The position numbers and the translations under genes are program-made. A stretch of DNA of 13,974 nt, taken from the IMG/VR virus record IMGVR_UViG_2531839579_000009; one strand, 5' to 3'. Numbering within the stretch: position 1 is the stretch's first letter; each line of letters opens with the position of its first letter. The notes under the pieces are model-generated. The model saw only the letters and a program-made list of their open reading frames with translations. It did not search any database and was not told the origin of the DNA. The DNA is from a virus. Taxonomy: Duplodnaviria; Heunggongvirae; Uroviricota; Caudoviricetes. Of the stretch, positions 1 to 13,764 are shown piece after piece.

Positions 1-1577
1 CGTGGAAAATTGTCCGTAAAGGCAGGCATCAAGTTCCTGCTCCGACATGCCTGCGGGCAAAGGCCACGAAAGGCCAGCTCTCCGAAAGCGCACGAACATA
101 CTACAAACTGTTGATTTTGGTACACCCAGGCGACGCCCGGCCACAACCCGGGGTAAATGTTCTTCAAAGTGAAGACGTAAAGCTTCAGTGATCCAGGTCC
201 GGTGTTTCATACGATAGTGTCCATTAAAAATGATGGACATTATTTTTGTAGAGCCGGAGGAAACAGACCAGACGGTTTAAATGAGCCGGTTACAAAGCCA
301 GTGAGGCGGCGTATCTACTTTGCCCGCACTGCAGCGGCATTATCACTGCGGAGAAAAAGCGTGAGCTCAATAGTGCAGGAGTCTGGTTGCGTGAAGGGCA
401 GGTCATTGATCGTAACGGCAACGTTTCCGGTGAACCGCGCCGCTCCCGTATCGCCAGTTTCTGGATGGAAGGGCCAGCTGCTGCGTATCAGACCTGGGCG
501 CAACTGGTTTACAAATTACTGACTGCAGAACAGGAGTATGAAGCGACAGGAAGCGAAGAAACACTCAGGGCGGTTATCAACACCGACTGGGGATTGCCTT
601 ATCTTCCTCGTGCCAGCATGGAGCAACGAAAAAGTGAATTGCTTGAGCAGCGGGCAGAGCCAGTTCCTTCCCGCAGTGTGCCGGATGGCGTTAATTTCCT
701 TGTGGCGACAGTGGATGTGCAGGCGGGACGTCATCGCCGTTTTGTGGTTCAGGTAACGGGCTATGGCAGCCGTGGCGAACGCTGGATTATTGATCGTTAC
801 AACATCACGCAGTCATTGCGCGGTGACAGCGACGGGGAGAGCCAGCGAATTGATCCGGCCAGCTATCCGGAAGACTGGGATGTCCTGCTGACGGATGTTT
901 TTCATAAAAGCTGGCCGCTGGCCTCCGATCCTTCTCAACAAATGCGACTGATGGCAATGGCGGTGGACTCCGGCGGTGAAGACGGGGTCACTGATAATGC
1001 CTATAAATTCTGGCGTCGTTGCCGTCGTGATGGCCTTGGTAAACGTATTTACCTGTTTAAGGGCGACAGCATCCGGCGCGCAAAACTGATCACCCGTACA
1101 TTCCCTGATAACACCGGACGAACGGGCCGACGGGCGCAGGCCGCAGGTGATGTGCCGCTCTGGCTTCTTCAGACGGATGCCCTGAAAGATCGGGTGAATA
1201 ACGCGTTATGGCGTGACTCGCCAGGTCCCGGCTATGTGCATTTCCCTGACTGGCTGGGGAGCTGGTTTTACGACGAACTGACGTATGAAGAGCGGAGCAG
1301 TGACGGGAAATGGAGTAAGCCGGGTCGCGGTGCCAACGAAGCTTTTGACCTGATGGTGTATGCCGAGGCTCTGGTCATTCTGCATGGATACGAAAAGATC
1401 CGCTGGCCGGATGCACCGGAGTGGGCGAGCCGGGAAACCTGGCTGGAGTGTGTCCCGGACAGTACCGAACCGTCACCCTCACCGGAACCGGTATCCACGC
1501 CTGTTAAAAAACAAAAACGGAAGAAAACAGTAACTGACGATGTTAACCCCTGGCTGACTTCCGGAGGATGGTTATGA
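1..1577 (+). CDS. A: Terminase large subunit (lambda gpA-like), 5'-partial at window edge. Intact frame only from about 286 to 1577; homologous upstream segments lie in other frames.
   Basis: ORF 387..1577 translation (…WLREGQVIDRNG…FLVATVDVQAGRHRRFVVQVTGYG…WIIDRYNI…) aligns with the C-terminal half of lambda gpA as I recall it. A CPHC motif is in the same frame at about 313-324, upstream of the first ATG. Frames 0 and 1 are both open in different parts of 1-300. Confidence 0.8.
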
Positions 1578-1786
1578 ACCAGAATGATATCGAAGCCATG
1601 ATTCAGCGTTATACGGAAGCTGAAATGGCGGTGCTGGACGGAAAATCCGTCACCTTTAATGGTCAGCAGATGACAATGGAAAACTTATCTGAGATCCGAC
1701 AGGGACGGCAGGAGTGGGAGCGCCGCCTTGCGGCTCTGATTACACGACGACGGGGGCATCCCGGGTACCGGCTGGCGAGGTTCTGA
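1574..1786 (+). CDS. W: Head-tail joining / head completion protein (lambda gpW-like)
   Basis: About 70 aa with a C-terminal RRRG motif as in lambda gpW (…QRRRGPAGFYV). GGAGGA at 1563-1568 lies 6 nt upstream of ATG 1574. The start overlaps the terminase stop (ATGA) and the stop overlaps the portal start (TGATG). Confidence 0.75.
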   Translation: MNQNDIEAMIQRYTEAEMAVLDGKSVTFNGQQMTMENLSEIRQGRQEWERRLAALITRRRGHPGYRLARF

Positions 1787-3292
1787 TGGCAATTCTTGAT
1801 GATGTGATTGGCGTTTTTTCACCAGGATGGAAAGCGGCAAGGCTGCGTTCCCGTGCGGTGATCCAGGCTTATGAGGCCGTAAAAACGACGCGGACACACA
1901 AAGCCCGACGGGAGAACAGAACTGCCGACCAGTTAAGCCAGTACGGGGCCGTGTCGTTACGTGAGCAGGCCCGTTACCTTGATAACAACCACGATCTGGT
2001 TATTGGTGTATTTGACAAGCTGGAAGAACGGGTGGTGGGGAAAAACGGGATTATTGTCGAGCCACATCCGGTATTACGCAATGGGGCCATTGCCCGTGAT
2101 CTGGCAGCGGAGATACGTACCCGATGGAGTGAATGGTCTGTCAGCCGGAGTCACCGGGCAGTTTACCCGTCCGATGCTGGAACGTCTGATGCTGCGTACC
2201 TGGCTGCGCGATGGTGAGGTGTTTGCCCAGATGGTTTCCGGGCGCATAAACAGCCTGACGCCTTCTGCCGGTGTTCATTTCTGGCTGGAGGCGCTCGAGC
2301 CGGACTTTATTCCCATGACCAGTGATGAGAGCAACAGGCTGAATCAGGGCGTGTTTGTTGATGACTGGGGGCGTCCCGAAAAATATCTGGTGTATAAAAG
2401 TCGTCCTGTATCCGGACGGCAGATGGAAACCAAAGAAGTGGATGCAGAGCGAATGCTGCATCTTAAATTTGTTCGCCGTCTGCACCAGATGCGCGGGACG
2501 TCTTTATTGTCCGGTGTGCTGATCCGCCTCAGCGCCCTGAAAGAGTATGAAGATTCTGAGCTGACTGCAGCAAGGGTCGCCGCTGCTCTGGGGATGTACA
2601 TCCGCAAAGGCGACGGACAGAGCTATGAAACGGATGGTAATTACAGCAAGGAGAAGGAACGCGAGCTTACCATTCAGCCAGGCATTATTTACGATGATCT
2701 GAAACCCGGCGAAGAAATCGGAATGGTGAAGTCGGATCGCCCCAATCCTAACCTTGAAACTTTTCGTAATGCTCAGTTGCGTGCCGTGGCGGCGGGCAGT
2801 CGTCTGAGTTTTTCCAGTACAGCGCGCAACTATAACGGCACTTACAGCGCCCAGCGTCAGGAGCTGGTTGAATCCACTGATGGCTACCTGATCCTGCAGG
2901 ACTGGTTTATTGGTGCCGTCACCCGCCCGATGTATCGTGCATGGCTGAAACAGGCTGTGGCATCCGGTGTTATCAGGCTACCCCGCGATCTTGACCGTTC
3001 TTCACTGTATACCGCGGTGTATTCCGGACCAGTGATGCCGTGGATTGACCCTGTTAAGGAGGCTGAGGCCTGGAAAATCCAGATTCGTGGTGGAGCGGCG
3101 ACAGAATCAGACTGGGTACGTGCTGGTGGTCGTAATCCGGATGATGTCAAACGTCGGCGCAAGGCCGAAATTGATGAAAACCGCAAGCTGGACCTAGTAT
3201 TTGATACCGATCCGGCCAGTGATAAAGGAGGCAGTAGTGCCGCAACGAAACGACAGGAGCCGCAGCACACCGACGACCAGTCCGAAGATTAA
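1786..3292 (+). pseudogene. Phage portal protein, reading frame broken near 2140-2155 in this sequence
   Basis: ORFs 1714..2217 (frame 1) and 1961..3292 (frame 2) together form one portal-sized protein of about 500 aa. The switch occurs within agccggagtcaccggg. Position directly after gpW and before the prohead protease fits a portal. Confidence 0.8.
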
Positions 3293-3305
3293 TTCCTGGT
3301 TCAGG

Positions 3306-5264
3306 ATGCAGGCTGGTCACCAGAGTGACGCGGATATTTATATTTATGACGAGATTGGTTTCTGGGGTGTTACAGCGAAGCAGTTTATCAGTGATCTGAA
3401 TGCACTGGGCGATATCACCCACATTAATCTCCATATTAATTCACCGGGTGGCGATGTCTTTGAAGGCATCGCCATTTTTAATGCGCTGAAAACACATGGT
3501 GCGTCCATTACCGTTTATGTCGACGGTGTGGCGGCGTCAATGGCGTCGGTCATTGCGATGGTGGGAAATCCGGTCATTATGCCGGAAAACACCTTCATGA
3601 TGATTCATAAACCATTTGGCTTTACGGGCGGTGATGCGGAGGACATGCGCACCTATGCCGACCTGCTCGATAAAGTTGAGGCGGTTCTGTTACCCGCTTA
3701 TGCACAGAAAACCGGGAAAACCACCGATGAAATTGCTGCCATGCTGGCGGATGAGACCTGGATGTCCGGTGCCGAATGTCTGGCACAGGGATTTGCTGAT
3801 CAGGTGACGCCAGCCGTTAAGGCAATGGCATGTATTCAGTCAAAACGTACAGAGGAATTTAAAAAGATGCCGGAATCCATTCGAAACATGATTACTCCGC
3901 CACGCAACAGTGCTCCACGCGTACAGGATGATGAACCTGCAGCCTCCCGGACGCCAGTGCAGGCAGCAGCACCCGTGGTGGATGAAAACAGTATCCGTGC
4001 GCAGGTACTGGCAGAGCAAAAAGCGCGTGTAAACGGTATTAATGATCTGTTTGCCATGTTTGGCGGGCGTTATCAGACGCTGCAGGCTCAGTGTCTTGCC
4101 GATCCTGAATGTTCGCTGGAACAGGCCCGCGAAAAGCTGTTGAACGAGATGGGGCGCGAGTCCACGCCATCCAATAAAAATACCCCGGCTCATATTTATG
4201 CCGGTAACGGTAATTTTGTGGGGGACGGGATCCGCCAGGCGCTGATGGCGCGTGCCGGATTTGAAAAAACCGAACGTGATAATGTCTACAACGGGATGAC
4301 CCTGCGTGAATATGCCCGTATGTCACTGACTGAACGGGGTATTGGGGTTTCCAGTTATAACCCGATGCAGATGGTCGGTGCGGCGTTCACACACAGTACG
4401 TCTGACTTCGGTAATATTCTGCTGGATGTTGCGAACAAAGCCATTCTGCAGGGCTGGGAAGATGCCCCTGAAACCTATGAACAGTGGACGCGGAAAGGTC
4501 AGTTGTCTGATTTTAAAATTGCCCATCGTGTGGGTATGGGGGGCTTCAGTGCTCTGCGTCAGGTGCGTGAAGGGGCGGAATATAAATACGTCACCACCGG
4601 AGATAAACAGGCCACTATTGCACTGGCGACCTATGGCGAGCTGTTCAGTATCACCCGTCAGGCCATTATCAATGATGATCTGAATATGCTGACCGATGTC
4701 CCGATGAAACTGGGCCGTGCGGCGAAATCCACTATTGCCGATCTGGTTTATGCCATTCTGACGTCTAACCCGAAAATCTCCACAGATAATGTAAGTCTGT
4801 TCGATAAAGCGAAACATGCAAACGTACTGGAGAGCGCTGCAATGGACGTGGCATCGCTGGATAAAGCCCGCCAGTTGATGCGCGTTCAGAAAGAGGGGGA
4901 GCGTCATCTGAATATTCGTCCTGCGTTCGTACTGGTACCGACGGCGATGGAGTCTGTTGCTAACCAGGTCATTCGCTCCTCAAGTGTCAAGGGGGCTGAC
5001 ATTAACGCCGGTATTATTAACCCGGTGAAAGATTTTGCGACCGTTATTGCAGAGCCTCGTCTTGATGATAACAGCCTGACCACCTTCTACCTGGCTGCGT
5101 CAAAAGGCTCCGATACGATTGAAGTGGCTTATCTCAACGGTGTGGATACGCCATATATTGATCAGATGGAGGGCTTCAGTGTGGATGGCGTGACAACGAA
5201 AGTGCGTATTGACGCCGGTGTCGCGCCAGTTGATCACCGCGGTCTGGTGAAATGTACGGCGTAA
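3306..5264 (+). CDS. Fused prohead protease (ClpP/S14-like) - linker/scaffold-like region - major capsid protein (Mu gpT-like), single 652-aa ORF
   Basis: The N-terminal ~170 aa (…INSPGGDVFEGIAIFNALK…VDGVAASMASVIAMVG…) looks like a ClpP-family serine protease core. The middle is a low-complexity Q/A/E-rich segment. The C-terminal ~350 aa resembles Mu-like major head subunits. ATG 3306 is in frame, just after the portal stop at 3290-3292. No internal stop. Confidence 0.8.
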   Translation: MQAGHQSDADIYIYDEIGFWGVTAKQFISDLNALGDITHINLHINSPGGDVFEGIAIFNALKTHGASITVYVDGVAASMASVIAMVGNPVIMPENTFMMIHKPFGFTGGDAEDMRTYADLLDKVEAVLLPAYAQKTGKTTDEIAAMLADETWMSGAECLAQGFADQVTPAVKAMACIQSKRTEEFKKMPESIRNMITPPRNSAPRVQDDEPAASRTPVQAAAPVVDENSIRAQVLAEQKARVNGINDLFAMFGGRYQTLQAQCLADPECSLEQAREKLLNEMGRESTPSNKNTPAHIYAGNGNFVGDGIRQALMARAGFEKTERDNVYNGMTLREYARMSLTERGIGVSSYNPMQMVGAAFTHSTSDFGNILLDVANKAILQGWEDAPETYEQWTRKGQLSDFKIAHRVGMGGFSALRQVREGAEYKYVTTGDKQATIALATYGELFSITRQAIINDDLNMLTDVPMKLGRAAKSTIADLVYAILTSNPKISTDNVSLFDKAKHANVLESAAMDVASLDKARQLMRVQKEGERHLNIRPAFVLVPTAMESVANQVIRSSSVKGADINAGIINPVKDFATVIAEPRLDDNSLTTFYLAASKGSDTIEVAYLNGVDTPYIDQMEGFSVDGVTTKVRIDAGVAPVDHRGLVKCTA

Positions 5265-5287
5265 ACGTCGCAGACAACAACTCTGAT

Positions 5288-5307
5288 GGCCCGTAAGGGC
5301 TTTTTTT
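5288..5307 (+). terminator. Rho-independent terminator-like hairpin after the capsid gene
   Basis: GGCCC-GTAA-GGGC stem with a GNRA tetraloop, followed by T7 (5301-5307), 24 nt downstream of the capsid stop at 5262-5264. Confidence 0.5.
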
Positions 5308-5318
5308 GTACCTGAAAT

Positions 5319-5337
5319 CAGCCCCTGAACGGGGCTG
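5319..5337 (+). promoter_or_regulatory. Perfect 7-bp stem-loop (CAGCCCC-TGAAC-GGGGCTG) immediately upstream of the RBS of the next gene
   Basis: Read directly from the sequence. It lies between the terminator-like hairpin and GGAG at 5341-5344. Confidence 0.4.
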
Positions 5338-5350
5338 TGCGGAGACAGTT

Positions 5351-5674
5351 ATGGCAAAGAATTTTGTAGAAGAAGGAAAAACGGTGGCGATTGTTGCCAG
5401 TGCAGCCATCAGCAGTGGAGATCTGGTGCAGGTGGGTGATGTTTTTGCGGTAGCGCTGACCGATATTCCACAGGGTGAAACAGGCGACGGCCTGACCGAA
5501 GGTGTGTTTATGCTGCCTAAGCTGAAAACGGATGACATGAAAACGGGTAAGAAGGTTTATCTGAAGTCCGGAAAAGTTCAGTTGACTAACAGCGGCTCTG
5601 ATCCGCTGGTCGGGGTTGTCTGGGCAGATGCCGGAACCAGTGCAGAAGAAGTGCCGGTAAAACTCAATGTCTGA
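5351..5674 (+). CDS. DUF2190-like small head protein (putative head decoration/cement protein)
   Basis: 107 aa starting MAKNFVEEGKTV…, which I recognise as typical of the DUF2190 family that follows ClpP/Mu-gpT-type capsid genes. GGAG sits 6 nt upstream of ATG 5351. ORF 5306..5674 has an earlier in-frame ATG but no RBS. Confidence 0.65.
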   Translation: MAKNFVEEGKTVAIVASAAISSGDLVQVGDVFAVALTDIPQGETGDGLTEGVFMLPKLKTDDMKTGKKVYLKSGKVQLTNSGSDPLVGVVWADAGTSAEEVPVKLNV

Positions 5675-5942
5675 TCCCTTTTCCCGGCTGGCAGCGCGTA
5701 TGGATGCGATCACGGTTAGAAAGATGGGAAAGACAGCCTCGATTAATGATGCCGATATGACTGTGATCCCGGGAGAAACACTGGCAGAGCTGAATGCTCT
5801 GTCCGGACCTGCGGTATCTCTGGTGGTGTTTTCTTCGGGATACCGCCCACGGCGCGGGGATCGCGTTGTTTATGACGGACAACAATGGACGGTCACACGG
5901 CATGAACGTTTTAACGGTAAGCCAATGATCTTTATTGAGTAA
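5667..5942 (+). CDS. FII: Head-tail attachment protein (lambda gpFII-like)
   Basis: 91 aa with a C-terminal …RRGDRVVYDGQQWTVTRHE… resembling the lambda gpFII RRGD region. Start overlaps the upstream stop (ATGTCTGA), suggesting translational coupling. Sits directly before gpZ as in lambda. Confidence 0.55.
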   Translation: MSDPFSRLAARMDAITVRKMGKTASINDADMTVIPGETLAELNALSGPAVSLVVFSSGYRPRRGDRVVYDGQQWTVTRHERFNGKPMIFIE

Positions 5943-5953
5943 AGAGGTGTGGG

Positions 5954-6535
5954 ATGAAGGGGCTTGAGAATGCTATCCGCAATCTGAACAGCCTTGATAC
6001 CCGTATGGTGCCACAGGCCAGCGCATGGGCGATAAACCGTGTGGCACAGAAAGCGGTCTCGGTCGCCACCCGGCAGGTTGCCGGGAATACCGTTGCGGGA
6101 GATAACCAGGTGAAAGGGATCCCCCTGAAACTGGTACGTCAGCGTGTCCGGGTGTTTAAAGCCAGTCCGTCAGGAAAAATGACGGCCAGGATCCGCGTTA
6201 ACCGGGGCAATCTGCCCACCATCAAGCTGGGGACAGCCCGGGTCAGACTGGCCCGGCGTGGTGGAAAACTGCAGTACCGTGGCAGTATTCAGCAACTGGC
6301 GAATGGCCGCTGGCATGTTCTGAGGCGTCTTCCTGAAGCGCGTTTTGCAACAGGGCATGTGATGCGGCGTATTGATGGCAAAAATCGTTACCCCATTGAT
6401 GTGGTGAAAGTCCCGCTGTCCGGACCGCTGACACAAGCATTTGAAGATGCCCGCGACCGCATTATTGCTGCGGAAATGCCGAAACAGCTGGGGTATGCAC
6501 TGAAACAACAACTGAGGTTATGGCTGACCCGATGA
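5954..6535 (+). CDS. Z: Minor tail protein Z (tail completion)
   Basis: 193 aa. MKGLENAIRNLNSL…NGRWHV…KNRYPIDVVK…LGYAL…QLR matches lambda gpZ (192 aa) along its length. AGAGG sits 6 nt upstream. Confidence 0.9.
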   Translation: MKGLENAIRNLNSLDTRMVPQASAWAINRVAQKAVSVATRQVAGNTVAGDNQVKGIPLKLVRQRVRVFKASPSGKMTARIRVNRGNLPTIKLGTARVRLARRGGKLQYRGSIQQLANGRWHVLRRLPEARFATGHVMRRIDGKNRYPIDVVKVPLSGPLTQAFEDARDRIIAAEMPKQLGYALKQQLRLWLTR

Positions 6536-6931
6536 ACCGACATACACAAATCCGCCAGGCCGTACTGGCACGCCTTCGGAACAGTGTGGAGACAGCGCCA
6601 CGTTTTTTGACGGGCTTCCGGCATTTTTGATGCGCAGGAACTGCCTGCCGTGGCGGTGTGGCTGAGTGATGCTCAGTACACCGGAAAAATGACGGATGAA
6701 GATGACTGGCAGGCTGTTCTGCATATTGCTGTCTTCATCCGGGCACAGGCACCGGATTCAGAGCTGGATATGTGGATGGAGAGCACCATTTTCCCGGCTC
6801 TGAATGATATACCGGCACTTTCCGGACTCATCGACACCCTGATCCCTCTCGGTTTTAACTATCAACGTGATAATGAGATGGCCACCTGGGCGATGGCGGA
6901 AATCACGTACCAGATCACGTACACGAATTAA
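6532..6931 (+). pseudogene. U: Tail terminator protein U, frame broken twice (about 6600 and 6626) in this sequence
   Basis: N-terminus MNRHTQIRQAVLARL… is in frame 1 to 6600, TFFDGLPAF in frame 0 (6600-6626), and FDAQELPAVAVWLSDAQYTG…DSELDMWMES…ITYQITY in frame 2 to the stop at 6929-6931. Each piece matches lambda gpU. The second break is in a T5 run. Confidence 0.85.
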
Positions 6932-6941
6932 GGAGGTGGTA

Positions 6942-7681
6942 ATGACCACACCAAATCCACTGGCAAAAACGAAAGGTGCGGGAACGACGTTCTGGATGTA
7001 ACCGGCAAGGCGATGCGTTTGCGAACCCTTTTCGGACACTGACTGGTGCGTCTTGCGATGGTGAAGGATCTGCAACCTGGCGAAATGACCGCTGATGCAG
7101 AAGATGACACTTATCTCGATGATGAAGATGCAGACTGGAAAACGACAACCCAGGGGCAGAAATCCGTCGGTGATACTTCGGCGACGCTGGCCTGGCGTCC
7201 GGGGGACAGCGGGCAGAAAAAACTGGTTCAGTTGTTCGACTCCGGTGAAGTCTGCGCGTTTCGTATCAAATATCCCAACGGTACTGTTGATGTTTTCCGT
7301 GGCTGGCTGAGTTCACTGGGTAAAACCATTGCCTCAAAAGACGTGATGACCCGCACCGTGAAAATCAGCGGTGTGGGGCGTCCGTATCTGGCAGAGGAAG
7401 GCACTGAAACCGTGGGCGTTACCGGGCTGACGGTGGCACCGGCATCTGCCAGTGTAAAAGTGGGAGCAACCACCACGCTGACCTTTACAGTAAAACCTGA
7501 CGGAGCCAGTGACAAAGCGATCAGTGTGCATTCGACAGATCCACAGACTGCCACGGTGACCCTGAACGGGCTTGTGGCCACGGTGAAAGGCGTGAAGCAG
7601 GGCAGTGTCAGCATTGTGGGCATGACTTCTGACGGCGATTTTGTGGCCGTGGCTGCGGTGGCTGTCAGCGCCGCAGGTTAA
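6942..7681 (+). pseudogene. V: Major tail tube protein V with C-terminal Ig-like domain; four frame breaks within 6998-7049
   Basis: AGGAGG at 6931-6936, ATG 6942. MTTPNPLAKTKGAGTTFWM runs into a stop at 6999. Homology to lambda gpV then continues in frame 2, frame 1, frame 0 and back to frame 2 from 7049 to the stop at 7679-7681. Confidence 0.85.
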
Positions 7682-7701
7682 CAGGACGATACTCATCATT
7701 T

Positions 7702-7725
7702 GCCCCGGTTATCCGGGGCTTTTTT
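7702..7725 (+). terminator. Rho-independent terminator after gene V
   Basis: GCCCCGG-TTAT-CCGGGGC (7-bp GC-rich stem) followed by T6, 21 nt after the V stop. Confidence 0.7.
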
Positions 7726-7741
7726 GCAGGTGGAGAACATG

Positions 7742-8128
7742 ATGTTTCTGAAACAGGGCTCGTTTAATTATGAAAAGCAGTCCGTGGTGCTCAGTGAGCT
7801 GTCCGGGCTGCAGAGAATTGAATATCTGGCGTTTGTTCAGCAGCGAACGGCAAAGTTTGATGCCGAAGAGGGAGAACTGCCGGAGGCTGAACGACAGATT
7901 GCTTTTCTGCGGATGGGGATGGATATCAATGCCTGGCTGGTTTCCCGCTCACTGTGGAATGCGGATCAGTCTAAGGATGTAGAGACGCTTTGCGCATCCG
8001 TTATTACAACATGGTCGTATGATGCCCTGGGTGCGGGGGCGGAGATGGTTCTGTCGCTGAGCGGTATGGGGGCCATTGATAATGCCGGGGATGATGAGCA
8101 TGAGGCGCTGACGCCGGAAAAGTCCTGA
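7742..8128 (+). CDS. G: Tail assembly chaperone G
   Basis: MFLKQGSFNYEKQSVVLSELSGLQRIEYLA… matches the lambda gpG N-terminus (MFLKTESFEHNGVTVTLSELSALQRIEHLA…). GGAG sits 6 nt upstream of ATG 7742. Stop at 8126-8128. Confidence 0.85.
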   Translation: MFLKQGSFNYEKQSVVLSELSGLQRIEYLAFVQQRTAKFDAEEGELPEAERQIAFLRMGMDINAWLVSRSLWNADQSKDVETLCASVITTWSYDALGAGAEMVLSLSGMGAIDNAGDDEHEALTPEKS

Positions 8129-8465
8129 CGCGGGAAATGCAGTTTGTCATGCGGCTTGCCCGGGAGTTCCGGCGGGCAGACTGGCGGCGGATGCTGTCGG
8201 AAATGTCGGCCACTGAGCTTGGTGAGTGGGGCGATTATTTCCGGATGCAGAGCTTCAGTGATGTGTGGATGGATGCGCAGTTTGCCTCGCTGAAGGCATT
8301 GATCGTGAGAATGGTGTCCGGCAGCAGTGATGCTGCGGTGGCTGATTTCAGCCTTTTACCGGAAGAGAACGGGATACCGGAGCGAACGGACGAAGAACTG
8401 ATGCATCTTGGGAAGGTATTTCCGGAGGTGTGCGTTATGGACCAGATAGCCAACCTGGTCATTGA
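8104..8465 (+). CDS. T: gpT segment of the G-T tail assembly chaperone (expressed only as a G-T fusion by -1 frameshift). 3' end uncertain: as written the frame reads through into H.
   Basis: The -1 frame relative to G encodes …REFRRADWRRMLSEMSATELGEWGDYFRMQSFSD…, which I recognise as gpT-like. There is no stop in this frame before 9615. A plausible gpT C-terminus (…GGVRYGPD… with stop at 8463-8465) is in another frame from about 8410. Confidence 0.5.
8116..8122 (+). promoter_or_regulatory. Candidate -1 programmed ribosomal frameshift site (G GAA AAG) for the G-T fusion
   Basis: Heptamer in the G frame 4 nt before the G stop. The -1 frame is open from 8104 and encodes a gpT-like sequence. 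Lambda uses G GGA AAG at the equivalent place. Confidence 0.5.
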
Positions 8466-11400
8466 TTTGGGGATTGATGCGGCAGAGTTTAAAAATGAAA
8501 TTCCCCGTATCAAAAACCTTCTGAATGGTGCCGCCAGCGATGCAGAACGGTCTTCTGCCCGTATGCAGCGTTTTATGGAGCGTCAGACTCAGGCCGCCCG
8601 GCAGACAACGCAGGCGGCTTCTTCGGCTGCAACAGCCGCCTCCGTCCATGCGCAGACGGTGGAGAAGAACGCACAGGCTCATGAACGCATGGCCCGCGAG
8701 GTGGAGAAAACCCGCCAGCGCATGGAGGCGCTGAGCCAGAAAATGCGCGATGAACAGGCGCAGGCCATGGCTCTGGCGGAGGCTCAGGATAAAGCGGCTG
8801 CTGCGTTTTATCGTCAGATTGACAGTGTGAAACAGGCCAGTGCGGGGCTGCAGGAATTACAGCGTATTCAGCAGCAGATCCGACAGGCCAGAAACAGTGG
8901 CGGGATTGGTCAGCAGGATTATCTGGCGCTGATTTCTGAGGTTACGGCGAAAACCCGTGTTCTTACACAGGCTGAGGAAGAGGCTACCCGACAGAAAGTG
9001 GCGTTTATCCGTCAGCTTAAAGAGCAGGCAACCCGCCAGAATCTTTCTTCTTCTGAGTTGCTTCGTGCTAAGGCTGCCCAGCTGGGGGTAAGCAGTGCTG
9101 CAGAAGTGTATATCCGCAAAATGGAGCAGGCAGGAAAAGCCACGCATTCGCTGGGTCTGAAAAGTGCAGCGGCCCGTCAGGAGATAGGCGTTCTGATAGG
9201 TGAACTGGCCCGCGGCAATTTAGGTGCGCTGAGGGGATCCGGAATAACGCTGGCTAACCGTGCCGGGTGGATAGACACATTGATGTCACCGAAAGGCATG
9301 ATGCTTGGCGGGGTTATTGGCGGTATTGCCGCGGCTGTCTATGGTCTGGGTAAAGCCTGGTATGACGGTCAGAAGGAGGGGGAAGAATTTAACCGCCAGC
9401 TGTCGCTGACGGGGCATTATGCCGGAGTCACTGCCGGGCAGCTGTGGACGCTCAGTCGTGCTATTTCCGGGAATGGTATCACGCAACATGCTGCAGCCGG
9501 TGCGCTGGCTCAGGTGGTGGGGAGTGGTGCATTTCGTGGAAACGATATCGGTATGGTGGCGAGAGTGCCGCACAGATGGAGCGATCGGTTGGCCAGTCGG
9601 TCAGCGATACCATAAGTCAGTTTAAGCGGCTGAAGGATGATCCTGTAAATGCCGCGAAGGCTCTGGACAATGAGCTGCATTTTCTTACTGCCACTCAGCT
9701 TGAGCAGATACGCGTCCTTGGGGAGCAGGGGCGGTCCAGTGATGCTGCACGGATAGCCATGTCTGCACTGGCAGAGGAAACCGGTCGGCGTACTGCGGAT
9801 ATTGATAATAACCTCAATGCGCTTGGCAGTACGCTGAAGTATCTGTCTGATTTGTGGAGTCGTTTCTGGGATGCGGCCATGAATATTGGTCGTGAAGACT
9901 CGCTGGATGAACAGATTGCCGCTTTACAGGAGAAAGTGTCGCGGGCGAAAAGACTCCCCTGGACGGCATCATCTTCTCAGGTTGAATACGATCAGCAGCG
10001 TCTTAACGATCTTCAGGAGAAAAAACGCCAGAAGGATTTGCAGGATGCAAAAGAGCAGGCAGAGCGGAATTATCAGGAGCAACAGAAACGCCGTAATGCT
10101 GAAAATGCTGCACTGAACCGGATGAATGAAACGGAAGCAGCACGACATCAGCGTGAAATTGCGCGTATTAATGCCATGCAGTACGCCGATCAGGCTGTCA
10201 GGGATGCGGCGATACAACGTGAAAATGAACGTTACGAGAAAGCCCTGGCATCCGGTAAGAAAAAAACACGCGAAACCCGTAATGATGAGGCCACCCGGTT
10301 ATTGCTGCAGTACAGTCAGCAACAGGCACAGGTGGAAGGACAGATTGCTGCTGCAGACAGTCAGCAGGCATTGCCACTGACAGGATGACAGAAGCGCATA
10401 AACAGCTTCTGGCTCTGCAGCAGCGCATCAGCGACCTGGACGGGAAAAAACTGACGGCAGATGAAAAGAGTGTGCTGGCCCGTAAAGATGAACTGATTCA
10501 GGCACTGACGCTGCTGGATGTAAAACAGCAGGAGCTTCAGAAACAGACGGCACTCAACGATCTGAAGAAAAAAACAATTCAGCTGACCAGTCAACTGGCT
10601 GAAGAAGAGCGCGCTCAGCGTCAGCAACATGACCTGGATATCGCCACGGTGGGTATGGGTGATCAGCAGCGGCAGCGATATCAGGTACAACTGAGTCTTC
10701 GCCAGAAATACCAGCAACAGCTGGAGCAGTTGAGGCGGGATAGTGAGCAGAAAGGAACATATAACACGGATGACTACAGAAAGGCCGAGCAGGCGCTGAC
10801 GGAGAGCCTGAACCGACAACTGAATGAGAATCGCCGTTACTGGCAACAGCTTGAAGTTGCTCAGGGTGACTGGAAAAACGGAGTCCTGCGTGCACTCCAG
10901 AATGTCACTGAGGAAGCGGATAACACGGCAGAAACAGCAGAACAGGTGTTCTCGTCAGCCTTCAGCAACATGGGAAATGGCCTGGCAACTTTTGTCACTA
11001 CCGGCAAACTCAATTTCAAATCCTTCACCTCTTCTGTGCTGTCAGATATGGCGAAAATCCTGGCGCAGATAGCTTTAATGAAAGCGGTAAAAGGTATTGC
11101 TTCCGCGCTGCCTTTTGATCTTGTAGCCAATGCTGATGGCGGTGTTTATCAGTCGGCTGATTTGAGTCGCTACAGTGGCACGGTGGTTAACCGTCCGACG
11201 TTTTTTGCTTTTGCAAAAGGCGCGGGTGTGATGGGGGAAGCGGGACCTGAAGCCATTCTGCCATTGCGTCGTGGTGCTGACGGTAAGCTGGGGGTTGTGG
11301 CGGATATTGGGGGTTCAGGTATGGCGATGTTTGCCCCGCAGTACAACATCGAGATCAATAACGATGGCACGAACGGGCAGATAGGTCCGGCTGCCCTGAA

Positions 11401-11491
11401 GGCGGTTTATGACCTCGGGAAAAAAGCGGCAGCGGACTTTATGCAACAGCAGGCCCGTGATGGTGGTCGGTTAAGTGGAGCATATCGGTAA
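8437..11491 (+). pseudogene. H: Tail tape measure protein H (about 1018 aa) with two frame breaks (about 9560 and 10384)
   Basis: Start MDQIANLVIDLGIDAAEFK matches the lambda gpH N-terminus. Three consecutive ORFs (8137..9615, 9444..10388, 10385..11491) in frames 1, 0 and 2 each continue the homology. C-terminus …NNDGTNGQIGPAALKAVYDLGKKAAADFMQQQARDGGRLSGAYR matches the lambda gpH end. Confidence 0.85.
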
Positions 11492-11829: not shown

Positions 11830-12495
11830 ATGCAGGATATTCCACAGGAAACACATCATGAGACGACACGCCTCACTCAGTCAGCCCAGGTGGTGCTCTG
11901 GGAAATCGATCTGACAGAGGTCGGTGGTGAACGTTATTTTTTCTGTAATGAGCAGAACGAAAAAGGTGAGCCGGTCACCTGGCAGGGGCGGCAGTATCAG
12001 GCATACCCCATTCAGGGGACGGGATTTGAACTGAACGGAAGGGCAGTGCTCCGCCACCTGACGGTTCTAACCTGACGGATGGTCACCGGGATGGCGGAAG
12101 ACTGCAGAGTCTGGTCGGCGGAACGGTGGTCGGCGTAAGGTTTACGCCCGTTTTCTGGATGCGGTGAACTTCGTCAACGGAAACAGAGCCGATCCGGAGC
12201 AGGAGGTGATCAGCCGCTGGCGCATGAGCAGTGAGCGAACTGAGGCGGTAGTGCCTCTTTGTCTTCCACCCGACGAAACGGATGGGCTGTTTTTCCGGGC
12301 GATCATGCTGGCCAACACCTGCACCTGGACCTATCGCGGGAGAGTGCGGTTATCGGTCCGGCGTCGCGGATGAATATGACCAGCCACGTCCGATATCACG
12401 AAGGATAAATGCAGCAAATGCCTGAGGGCTGTAAGTTTCGCAATAACGTCGGCAACTTTGGCGGCTTCCTTTCCATTAACAAACTTTCGCAGTAA
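11830..12495 (+). pseudogene. L: Minor tail protein L, multiply frame-broken between about 12039 and 12430
   Basis: AGGAGG sits 5 nt upstream. The first 69 aa (MQDI…VVLWEIDLTEVGGERYFFCNEQNEKGEPVTWQGRQYQ…ELNG) are near-identical to lambda gpL. After 12039, exact lambda-like peptides appear in alternating frames, ending in-frame with …GFLSINKLSQ and a stop at 12493-12495. Confidence 0.85.
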
Positions 12496-12499
12496 TCCC

Positions 12500-13226
12500 A
12501 TGACAAGACAGAATCAGCGATTCTGGCGCACGCCCGGCGATGTGCGCCAGCGGAGTCGTGCGGCTTCGTGGTGAGAACGCCGGAGGGGAAAGATATTTTC
12601 CCTGCGTGAATATCTCCGGTGAGCCGGAGGCGTATTTCCGGATGTCGCCGGAGGACTGGCTGCAGGCAGAATGCAGGGTGAGATTGTGGCGCTGGTCCAC
12701 AGCCACCCCGGTGGTCTGCCCTGGCTGAGTGAGGCGACCGGCGGCTGCAGGTGCAGAGTGATTTGCCGTGGTGGCTGGTCTGCCGGGGGCGATTCATAAT
12801 TCCGCTGTGTGCCGCATCTCACCGGGCGGCGCTTTGAGCACGGGGTGACGGACTGTTACACGCTGTTCCGGGAGCTTACATCTGGCGGGATTGAGATGCC
12901 GGATTTTCATCGCGGGGATACTGGTGGCGTCACGGTCAGAATCTCTATCTGGATAATCTGGAGGCCACAGGGCTGTATCAGGTGCCGTTGTCAGCGGCGC
13001 AGCCGGGCGATGTGCTGCTGTGCTGTTTTGGTTCATCGGTGCCGAATCATGCCGCCATTTACTGGGGACGGGAGCTGCTGCACCATATTCCTGAACAACT
13101 GAGAAACGAGAGAGGTATACCGACAAATGGCAGCGACGCACACACTCCCTCTGGCGTCACCGGGATGGCACGCATCTGCCTTTACGGGGATTTCAACGAT
13201 TTGGCCGCCGCATCGACCTTCGGTGA
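12500..13226 (+). pseudogene. K: Tail tip assembly protein K (JAMM/MPN plus NlpC/P60-type domains), multiply frame-broken
   Basis: MTRQNQRFWR… start. Lambda gpK-like peptides (CGFVVR; GGERYFPCVNIS…EAYFRMSPEDWLQAE; EIVALVHSHPGGLPWLSEA; DRRLQVQSDLPWWLVCRG; PHLTGRRFEHGVTDCYTLFR; GIEMPDFHR; NLYLDNLEATGLYQVPLSAAQPGDVLLCCFGSSVPNHAAIY…ELLHHIPEQL) are spread over all three frames. Confidence 0.8.
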
Positions 13227-13764
13227 AAACGGGGCGAAGCCATCCGGGCGCTGGCCATGCAGTCCCGGCGTTTCGTCAGAACTGAGCGACGGCTGGTATC
13301 AGGTACGCATTGCCGGGCGTGATGCAGGTGAAACCGAATTGTCTGCCCGTCTTAATGAGCCGCTGGCAAATGGTGCCGTGATCCAATCGTGCCGCGTCTG
13401 GCGGGAGCTAAAAGTGGCGGTGTGTTTCAGGTGGTGCTGGGGGCGGCGTTGATTGCGGTGGCATGGTGGAACCCTGTGGGCTGGCTGGGTGCCGCGGCTG
13501 TATCGGGCATGTATGCGGCAGGGGCCAGTATGATCCTGGGCGGGTGGCGCAGATGCTGGCACCGAAAGCCAGGACGCCACGGCAGCCAGTACAGATAACG
13601 GCAAACAGAACACCTATTTTTCCTCACTGGATAACATGGTTGCTCAGGGCAATGTTTTGCCTGTTCTGTACGGGGAAATGCGTGTGGGGTCGCGGGTGGT
13701 TTCTCAGGAGATCAGCACGGCAGACGAAGGGGACGGTGGTCAGGTTGTGGTGATTGGTCGCTGA
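13127..13764 (+). pseudogene. I: Tail tip assembly protein I, multiply frame-broken; overlaps the 3' end of K
   Basis: MAATHTLPLASPG start. MARICLYGD, QRFGRRIDLR, VKTG…PAFRQ, LSDGWYQVRIAGRD, AGAKSGGVFQVVLGAA, VAQMLAPKARTPR and DNGKQNTYFSSLDNMVAQGNVLPVLYGEMRVGSRVVSQEISTADEGDGGQVVVIGR match lambda gpI but in alternating frames. Stop at 13762-13764. Confidence 0.8.

Follow-up and report, generated by a model that had tools for sequence, protein, structure and literature searches.

The window, as we call the whole 13,974-nucleotide stretch of DNA that was analysed, carries tail genes in the order V-G-T-H. This is the order in phage lambda, and G matched Pfam family PF06894, T matched PF06223 and H matched PF06791 as in lambda. 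The underlying G/T/H arrangement is textbook lambda and constitutes an already well-known prophage tail module. The features at the locus were as follows.

7739-8128, plus strand: gene G, tail assembly chaperone (PF06894), intact, with its stop at 8126-8128
8104-8411, plus strand: T reading frame, -1 relative to G, correct as far as the lesion; annotators place the T start at the ATG at 8137
8116-8122, plus strand: candidate -1 frameshift site from G into T, G GAA AAG, placed by the position of G GGA AAG in lambda
8410-8412, plus strand: lesion, GGG in the window versus GGGG in mEp460 and phage 500465-3 and GGAG in the E. coli 120899 prophage
8412-8465, plus strand: true C-terminus of T in the third frame, EGISGGVRYGPDSQPGH, with its stop TGA at 8463-8465; it aligns with the end of lambda T
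8424-8430, plus strand: putative Shine-Dalgarno sequence of H, GGAGGTG, read from the sequence, 6 nt upstream of the ATG and within the conserved Gly-Gly-Val codons of T
8437-11491, plus strand: gene H, tape measure, delimited from the ORF list, the indel list and PF06791 (TMP_2); one ORF in relatives

The G, T and H reading frames

Two overlapping ORFs are present between V (major tail gene) and H (tape measure), with G at 7739-8128 and the second, T, in the -1 frame and open from 8104. G matched PF06894 (Phage_TAC_2) at 135.5 bits over profile positions 1-123 of 126 and had zero indels relative to its relatives. In lambda, G and G-T arise by a programmed -1 frameshift, as stated in PMC3296357, which cites Levin, Hendrix and Casjens (1993), and the slippery sequence is G GGA AAG (Table 1 of PMC3296357). 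Because the T frame of the window is open only from 8104, the slip would have to occur between 8104 and the G stop at 8126-8128, and G GAA AAG is the sole slippery candidate in the 8104-8125 overlap. At this candidate heptamer, re-pairing of the A-site from AAG to AAA would proceed as in lambda, whereas re-pairing of the P-site from GAA to GGA would need a G:U pair. G GAA AAG was identical in close relatives, and positions 8001-8500 contained no mismatches to the closest relative. A stem with a T-run (GCCCCGGTTATCCGGGGCTTTTTTG) was also observed between V and G at 7700-7727, where mEp460 is annotated with a rho-independent terminator; this stem fits weaker expression of the G, T and H genes compared to the major tail protein.

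As written, T has no stop of its own before H. The T frame opens after a stop at 8101-8103, has its first ATG at 8137 (translation from 8083) and remains open to 9615, so that the sequence and the ORF list give a single ORF at 8137-9615 (492 aa, in the frame with codon starts at 1 mod 3). The ATG at 8437-8439, the annotated H start in relatives, shares this frame. Translation passes across the junction as ...TDEELMHLGKVFPEVCVMDQIANLV... directly into H, and the T-into-H stretch reads ...TDEELMHLGKVFPEVCVMDQIANLVIDLG... in the window translation. A complete T C-terminus with its own stop, apart from the H frame, was absent as written and present once one base was restored. The original prediction had placed T without a stop, in frame with the H start at 8437 and open from 8104 to 9615, and these positions were all correct. 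It had also noted that the sequence as written would make a G-T-H fusion; the continuity of the frame held, but a full fusion would not be made even as written, since the open frame ends at 9615 because of a further one-base deletion in H itself after 9565.

H was split into ORFs at 8437-9615, 9444-10388 and 10385-11491 by one-base deletions after 9565 and 10354, whereas in relatives it is one ORF of 3057-3066 nt. The H sequence matched TMP_2 at 102.8 bits, and no continuous ORF of approximately 1000 aa was present. The GGAGGTG and ATG of H (8424-8439) sit within the codons for GGVRYG, the C-terminal motif of T, and the same is true in lambda; both the motif and the H translation signals thus constrain the same bases.

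The missing base at 8410-8412

When aligned with mEp460, an E. coli prophage and phage 500465-3, the window was exactly one base short at CTTGG(G/A)GAAGG. The window reads CTTGGGAAGG, mEp460 and phage 500465-3 read CTTGGGGAAGG, and the prophage of E. coli 120899 reads CTTGGAGAAGG. Positions 8100-8600 had matches of at least 99% identity to 17 phages and 1849 E. coli records, and in nearly all of these 501 window bases corresponded to 502 record bases. The loss of one base had been predicted at 8410-8412 and was confirmed there. The base had been taken to be a G; the closest relatives have GGAG, and the alignment suggests that an A may have been lost instead.

The T protein in mEp460 and in the RefSeq annotation of E. 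coli is WP_001161009.1 (109 aa), which in intact relatives ends in ...MHLGEGISGGVRYGPDSQPGH followed by the stop, 29 nt inside H and in a different frame. One base inserted into the window yielded a T that was 100% identical to WP_001161009.1 over 109 aa. The Phage_tail_T profile (PF06223) matched the ORF of the window at 46.3 bits (Pfam gathering cut-off 25.9) over profile positions 1-67 of 73, compared to 56.5 bits over positions 1-73 of 73 for an intact relative; the match stops at position 67 in the window, at the lesion. The third-frame terminus of the window aligned with the lambda terminus ...EGIAGGVRYG and its stop, and with the internal AGLAGGVRFGPDGNE of lambda, and therefore represents the conserved T terminus. 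The original prediction had named this same third-frame sequence, with its stop at 8463-8465, as the natural end of T, in agreement with the terminus of intact relatives.

T at this locus resembles lambda T in lying in the -1 frame over the end of G, in overlapping the H start in a different frame, and in its C-terminal motif EGI(A/S)GGVRYG, which is EGIAGGVRYG in lambda and EGISGGVRYG in the present family. In contrast, lambda T stops 8 nt into H (ATGGCTGA) rather than the 29 nt of an intact mEp460/cdtI-type T, is longer, carries the GGVR(F/Y)G motif twice, and is preceded by the heptamer G GGA AAG rather than G GAA AAG. With one base lost at 8410-8412, T necessarily enters the H frame, so the continuity of the two genes is not a matter of chance.

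Deletions across the window and rarity of the allele

mEp460/cdtI and the matching E. coli prophages were 97-98% identical to the window at the nucleotide level over its whole length, and their T is identical to that of the window after the one-base restoration. None of the 75 single-base deletion events of the window (80 bases in total), among them the loss at 8410-8412, is present in these relatives. Compared to the closest relative (98.2% identity), the window had 169 mismatches and 75 deletion events but only 3 insertions, and compared to mEp460 it had 75 deletions and 6 insertions. Sixty-five of the 75 positions deleted relative to the closest relative recurred within 3 nt in the comparison with mEp460. 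For comparison, mEp460 and an E. coli prophage, which are good sequences with a similar degree of divergence, differed by only 12 gap openings.

The deletions were clustered most densely at 6241-7046 and 12038-13576 (the latter comprising L, K and I), with isolated deletions at 2144, 2149, 8411, 9565 and 10354. The portal gene (2144, 2149), U, V, T, H, L, K and I were all frame-broken. In gene L, positions 12001-12500 had 33 scattered bases deleted and one mismatch. Of 4338 E. coli records, the one that best matched 12000-12500 aligned 534 of its bases with 501 window bases at 93.8% identity, a difference that consists almost entirely of gaps, and none of the 4338 shared the gene L deletions of the window. 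Single-base deletions by the tens, almost unaccompanied by substitutions or insertions, are not a product of natural pseudogene decay; they are the signature of a poorly supported consensus.

Slippage in homopolymers was considered as the origin of the window deletions and rejected, because the deleted bases were mostly outside homopolymer runs: single-base runs accounted for 60 of the 80, versus a background of 55%. The window errors look like random base drop-outs. A search of the literature on the sister-assembly accessions did not find the sequencing platform. The dense indels at 6241-6368 may reflect genuine mosaicism instead of errors, as they leave the ORF intact with a net change of -9, and they were not counted as proven errors. 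They fall in an intact Z-like tail gene (ORF 5954-6535, 193 aa) that was unusually divergent at 6150-6480, where the best of 1924 E. coli records was 91% identical and matched in two pieces; the 6001-6500 bin had 46 mismatches to the closest relative. This part of the Z-like gene may be a rare mosaic allele rather than an error.

The allele at the T lesion was assessed in complete E. coli records with a 66-nt query across the site, in which the alleles are told apart by identity. The extra base was present in 1830 of 1831 E. coli records, and one record matched the window perfectly. In this sole exception, NZ_CP025910.1, the site is approximately 400 bases from the end of the record, and both T and H are labelled frameshifted by PGAP. 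Within its first 10 kb, the record also contains these genes with T and H intact. Its first and last 7.4 kb are direct repeats of each other that reach exactly to the two ends of the record and differ by 6 mismatches and 21 gap openings. This terminal repeat is an untrimmed circular-assembly overlap in which the same DNA was assembled twice. The copies disagree at the T site, where all other genomes side with the copy that has the extra base. Since only one of two copies of the same DNA is intact, the same deletion is here seen directly, arising as an assembly error. The overlap, at 1-7405 and 5089334-5096741 of what is a "complete" chromosome in RefSeq, duplicates part of the prophage tail module and has given spurious frameshifted pseudogenes at both ends of the record.

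The fused ORF was also used as a protein query against a collection of 5.8 billion sequences, which gave 388 matches, 120 of them listed. Among those 120, a single protein (P0001) had an identical junction, and it was the only one to combine a T domain with H sequence. Co-linear T-H homologs, which would have spoken against a missing base, were therefore represented among the listed matches by this one fusion only, and it came from an error-ridden contig. The fusion is encoded by one 4.4-kb Logan contig (SRR30949552_283) in which 12 single bases are deleted compared to a good reference, chiefly within homopolymer runs, so that the homopolymer slippage rejected for the window fits this contig instead. 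The 63-member cluster of P0001 was considered as support for a real allele and rejected, as the other members listed (15 of 40) were short, partial pieces of T, 28-71 aa long. The viral contig collection did not contain the exact deletion allele (GATGCATCTTGGGAAGGTATTTCCGGAGG).

The overlap of NZ_CP025910.1 and SRR30949552_283 share with the window the same one-base loss at the end of T and the junction ...MHLGKVFPEVCVMDQ..., but both are other prophage variants that differ from the window by 151 and 101 mismatches, respectively, and each has its own separate set of other deletions. The unannotated 13.5-kb record CP025902.1 ("Escherichia phage 500465-3") was one G short at another site, in the TTTGGGGATT run just inside H (locus approximately 2165), and had 25 gap openings over 5.1 kb compared to a good reference. 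This record belongs to the same prophage family and is likewise short and error-laden.

Origin of the T-H continuity

We consider it very probable that the continuity of T and H is an artefact, in which a base was dropped at 8410-8412 during sequencing or assembly, and that the window is a poor-quality copy of a head-tail module from an ordinary E. coli prophage, lambda-like and of the mEp460/cdtI type. That the cause was technical rather than a real mutation is something we infer from the context. At the real locus, G would be translated to its stop as in lambda, and by analogy with lambda a small fraction of ribosomes would slip -1 near the end of G to give G-T. The real T would terminate 29 nt into H, at a stop of its own and in a frame other than that of H, and H would be translated separately from GGAGGTG (8424-8430) and the ATG at 8437. 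The one base dropped in the window would have shifted T into the H frame and removed its stop.

One observation runs counter to an artefact. The deletion at 8411 is the only indel between 7047 and 9564, an otherwise clean stretch of 2.5 kb outside the densest error clusters. It could be a real mutation in a decaying, defective (ETEC) prophage, in which case T would be a true pseudogene and rare G-T products would read into a truncated H. The context of the prophage is compatible with relaxed selection on tail genes. Positions 1-296 of the window begin inside an IS66-family (ISCro1-like) element, with phage matches beginning at approximately 294, and the large terminase gene of the closest E. 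coli prophages is cut short at its N-terminus by this element. With its terminase truncated the lineage is packaging-defective, and selection would not remove a real inactivating mutation in T. However, strains 120899, 103605 and 204446 carry sister prophages with this IS insertion in which both T and H are intact, 1830 of the 1831 records are intact at the T site, and the error signature of the window (75 deletions versus 3 insertions, with 33 deleted bases in L) leaves a low prior for any single deletion being real. We therefore regard a real mutation as improbable; if true, it would capture a prophage in the course of decay and have no functional significance.

A genuine, functional T-H or G-T-H fusion that tethers the chaperone to the tape measure is conceivable in principle, as gpG and gpGT are thought to be chaperones for gpH (PMC3296357), but is effectively excluded: the conserved T C-terminus EGISGGVRYG is replaced by the out-of-frame KVFPEVCV, the fused frame stops at 9615 in an H that is itself frameshifted, no clean homolog with the fusion occurred among the E. 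coli records or the listed protein matches, and a covalent link to the tape measure is contradicted by the account in the same paper, citing Levin et al. (1993) and Xu (2001), that gpG and gpGT act in tail assembly and are absent from the finished lambda tail.

A base dropped from an ordinary prophage thus remains the preferred explanation, and the finding matters as quality control only. Gene calls in the window are wrong for at least 8 genes (portal, U, V, T, H, L, K and I). Fusions or pseudogenes inferred from it should be given no biological reading, and its other frameshifts are suspected to have the same cause.
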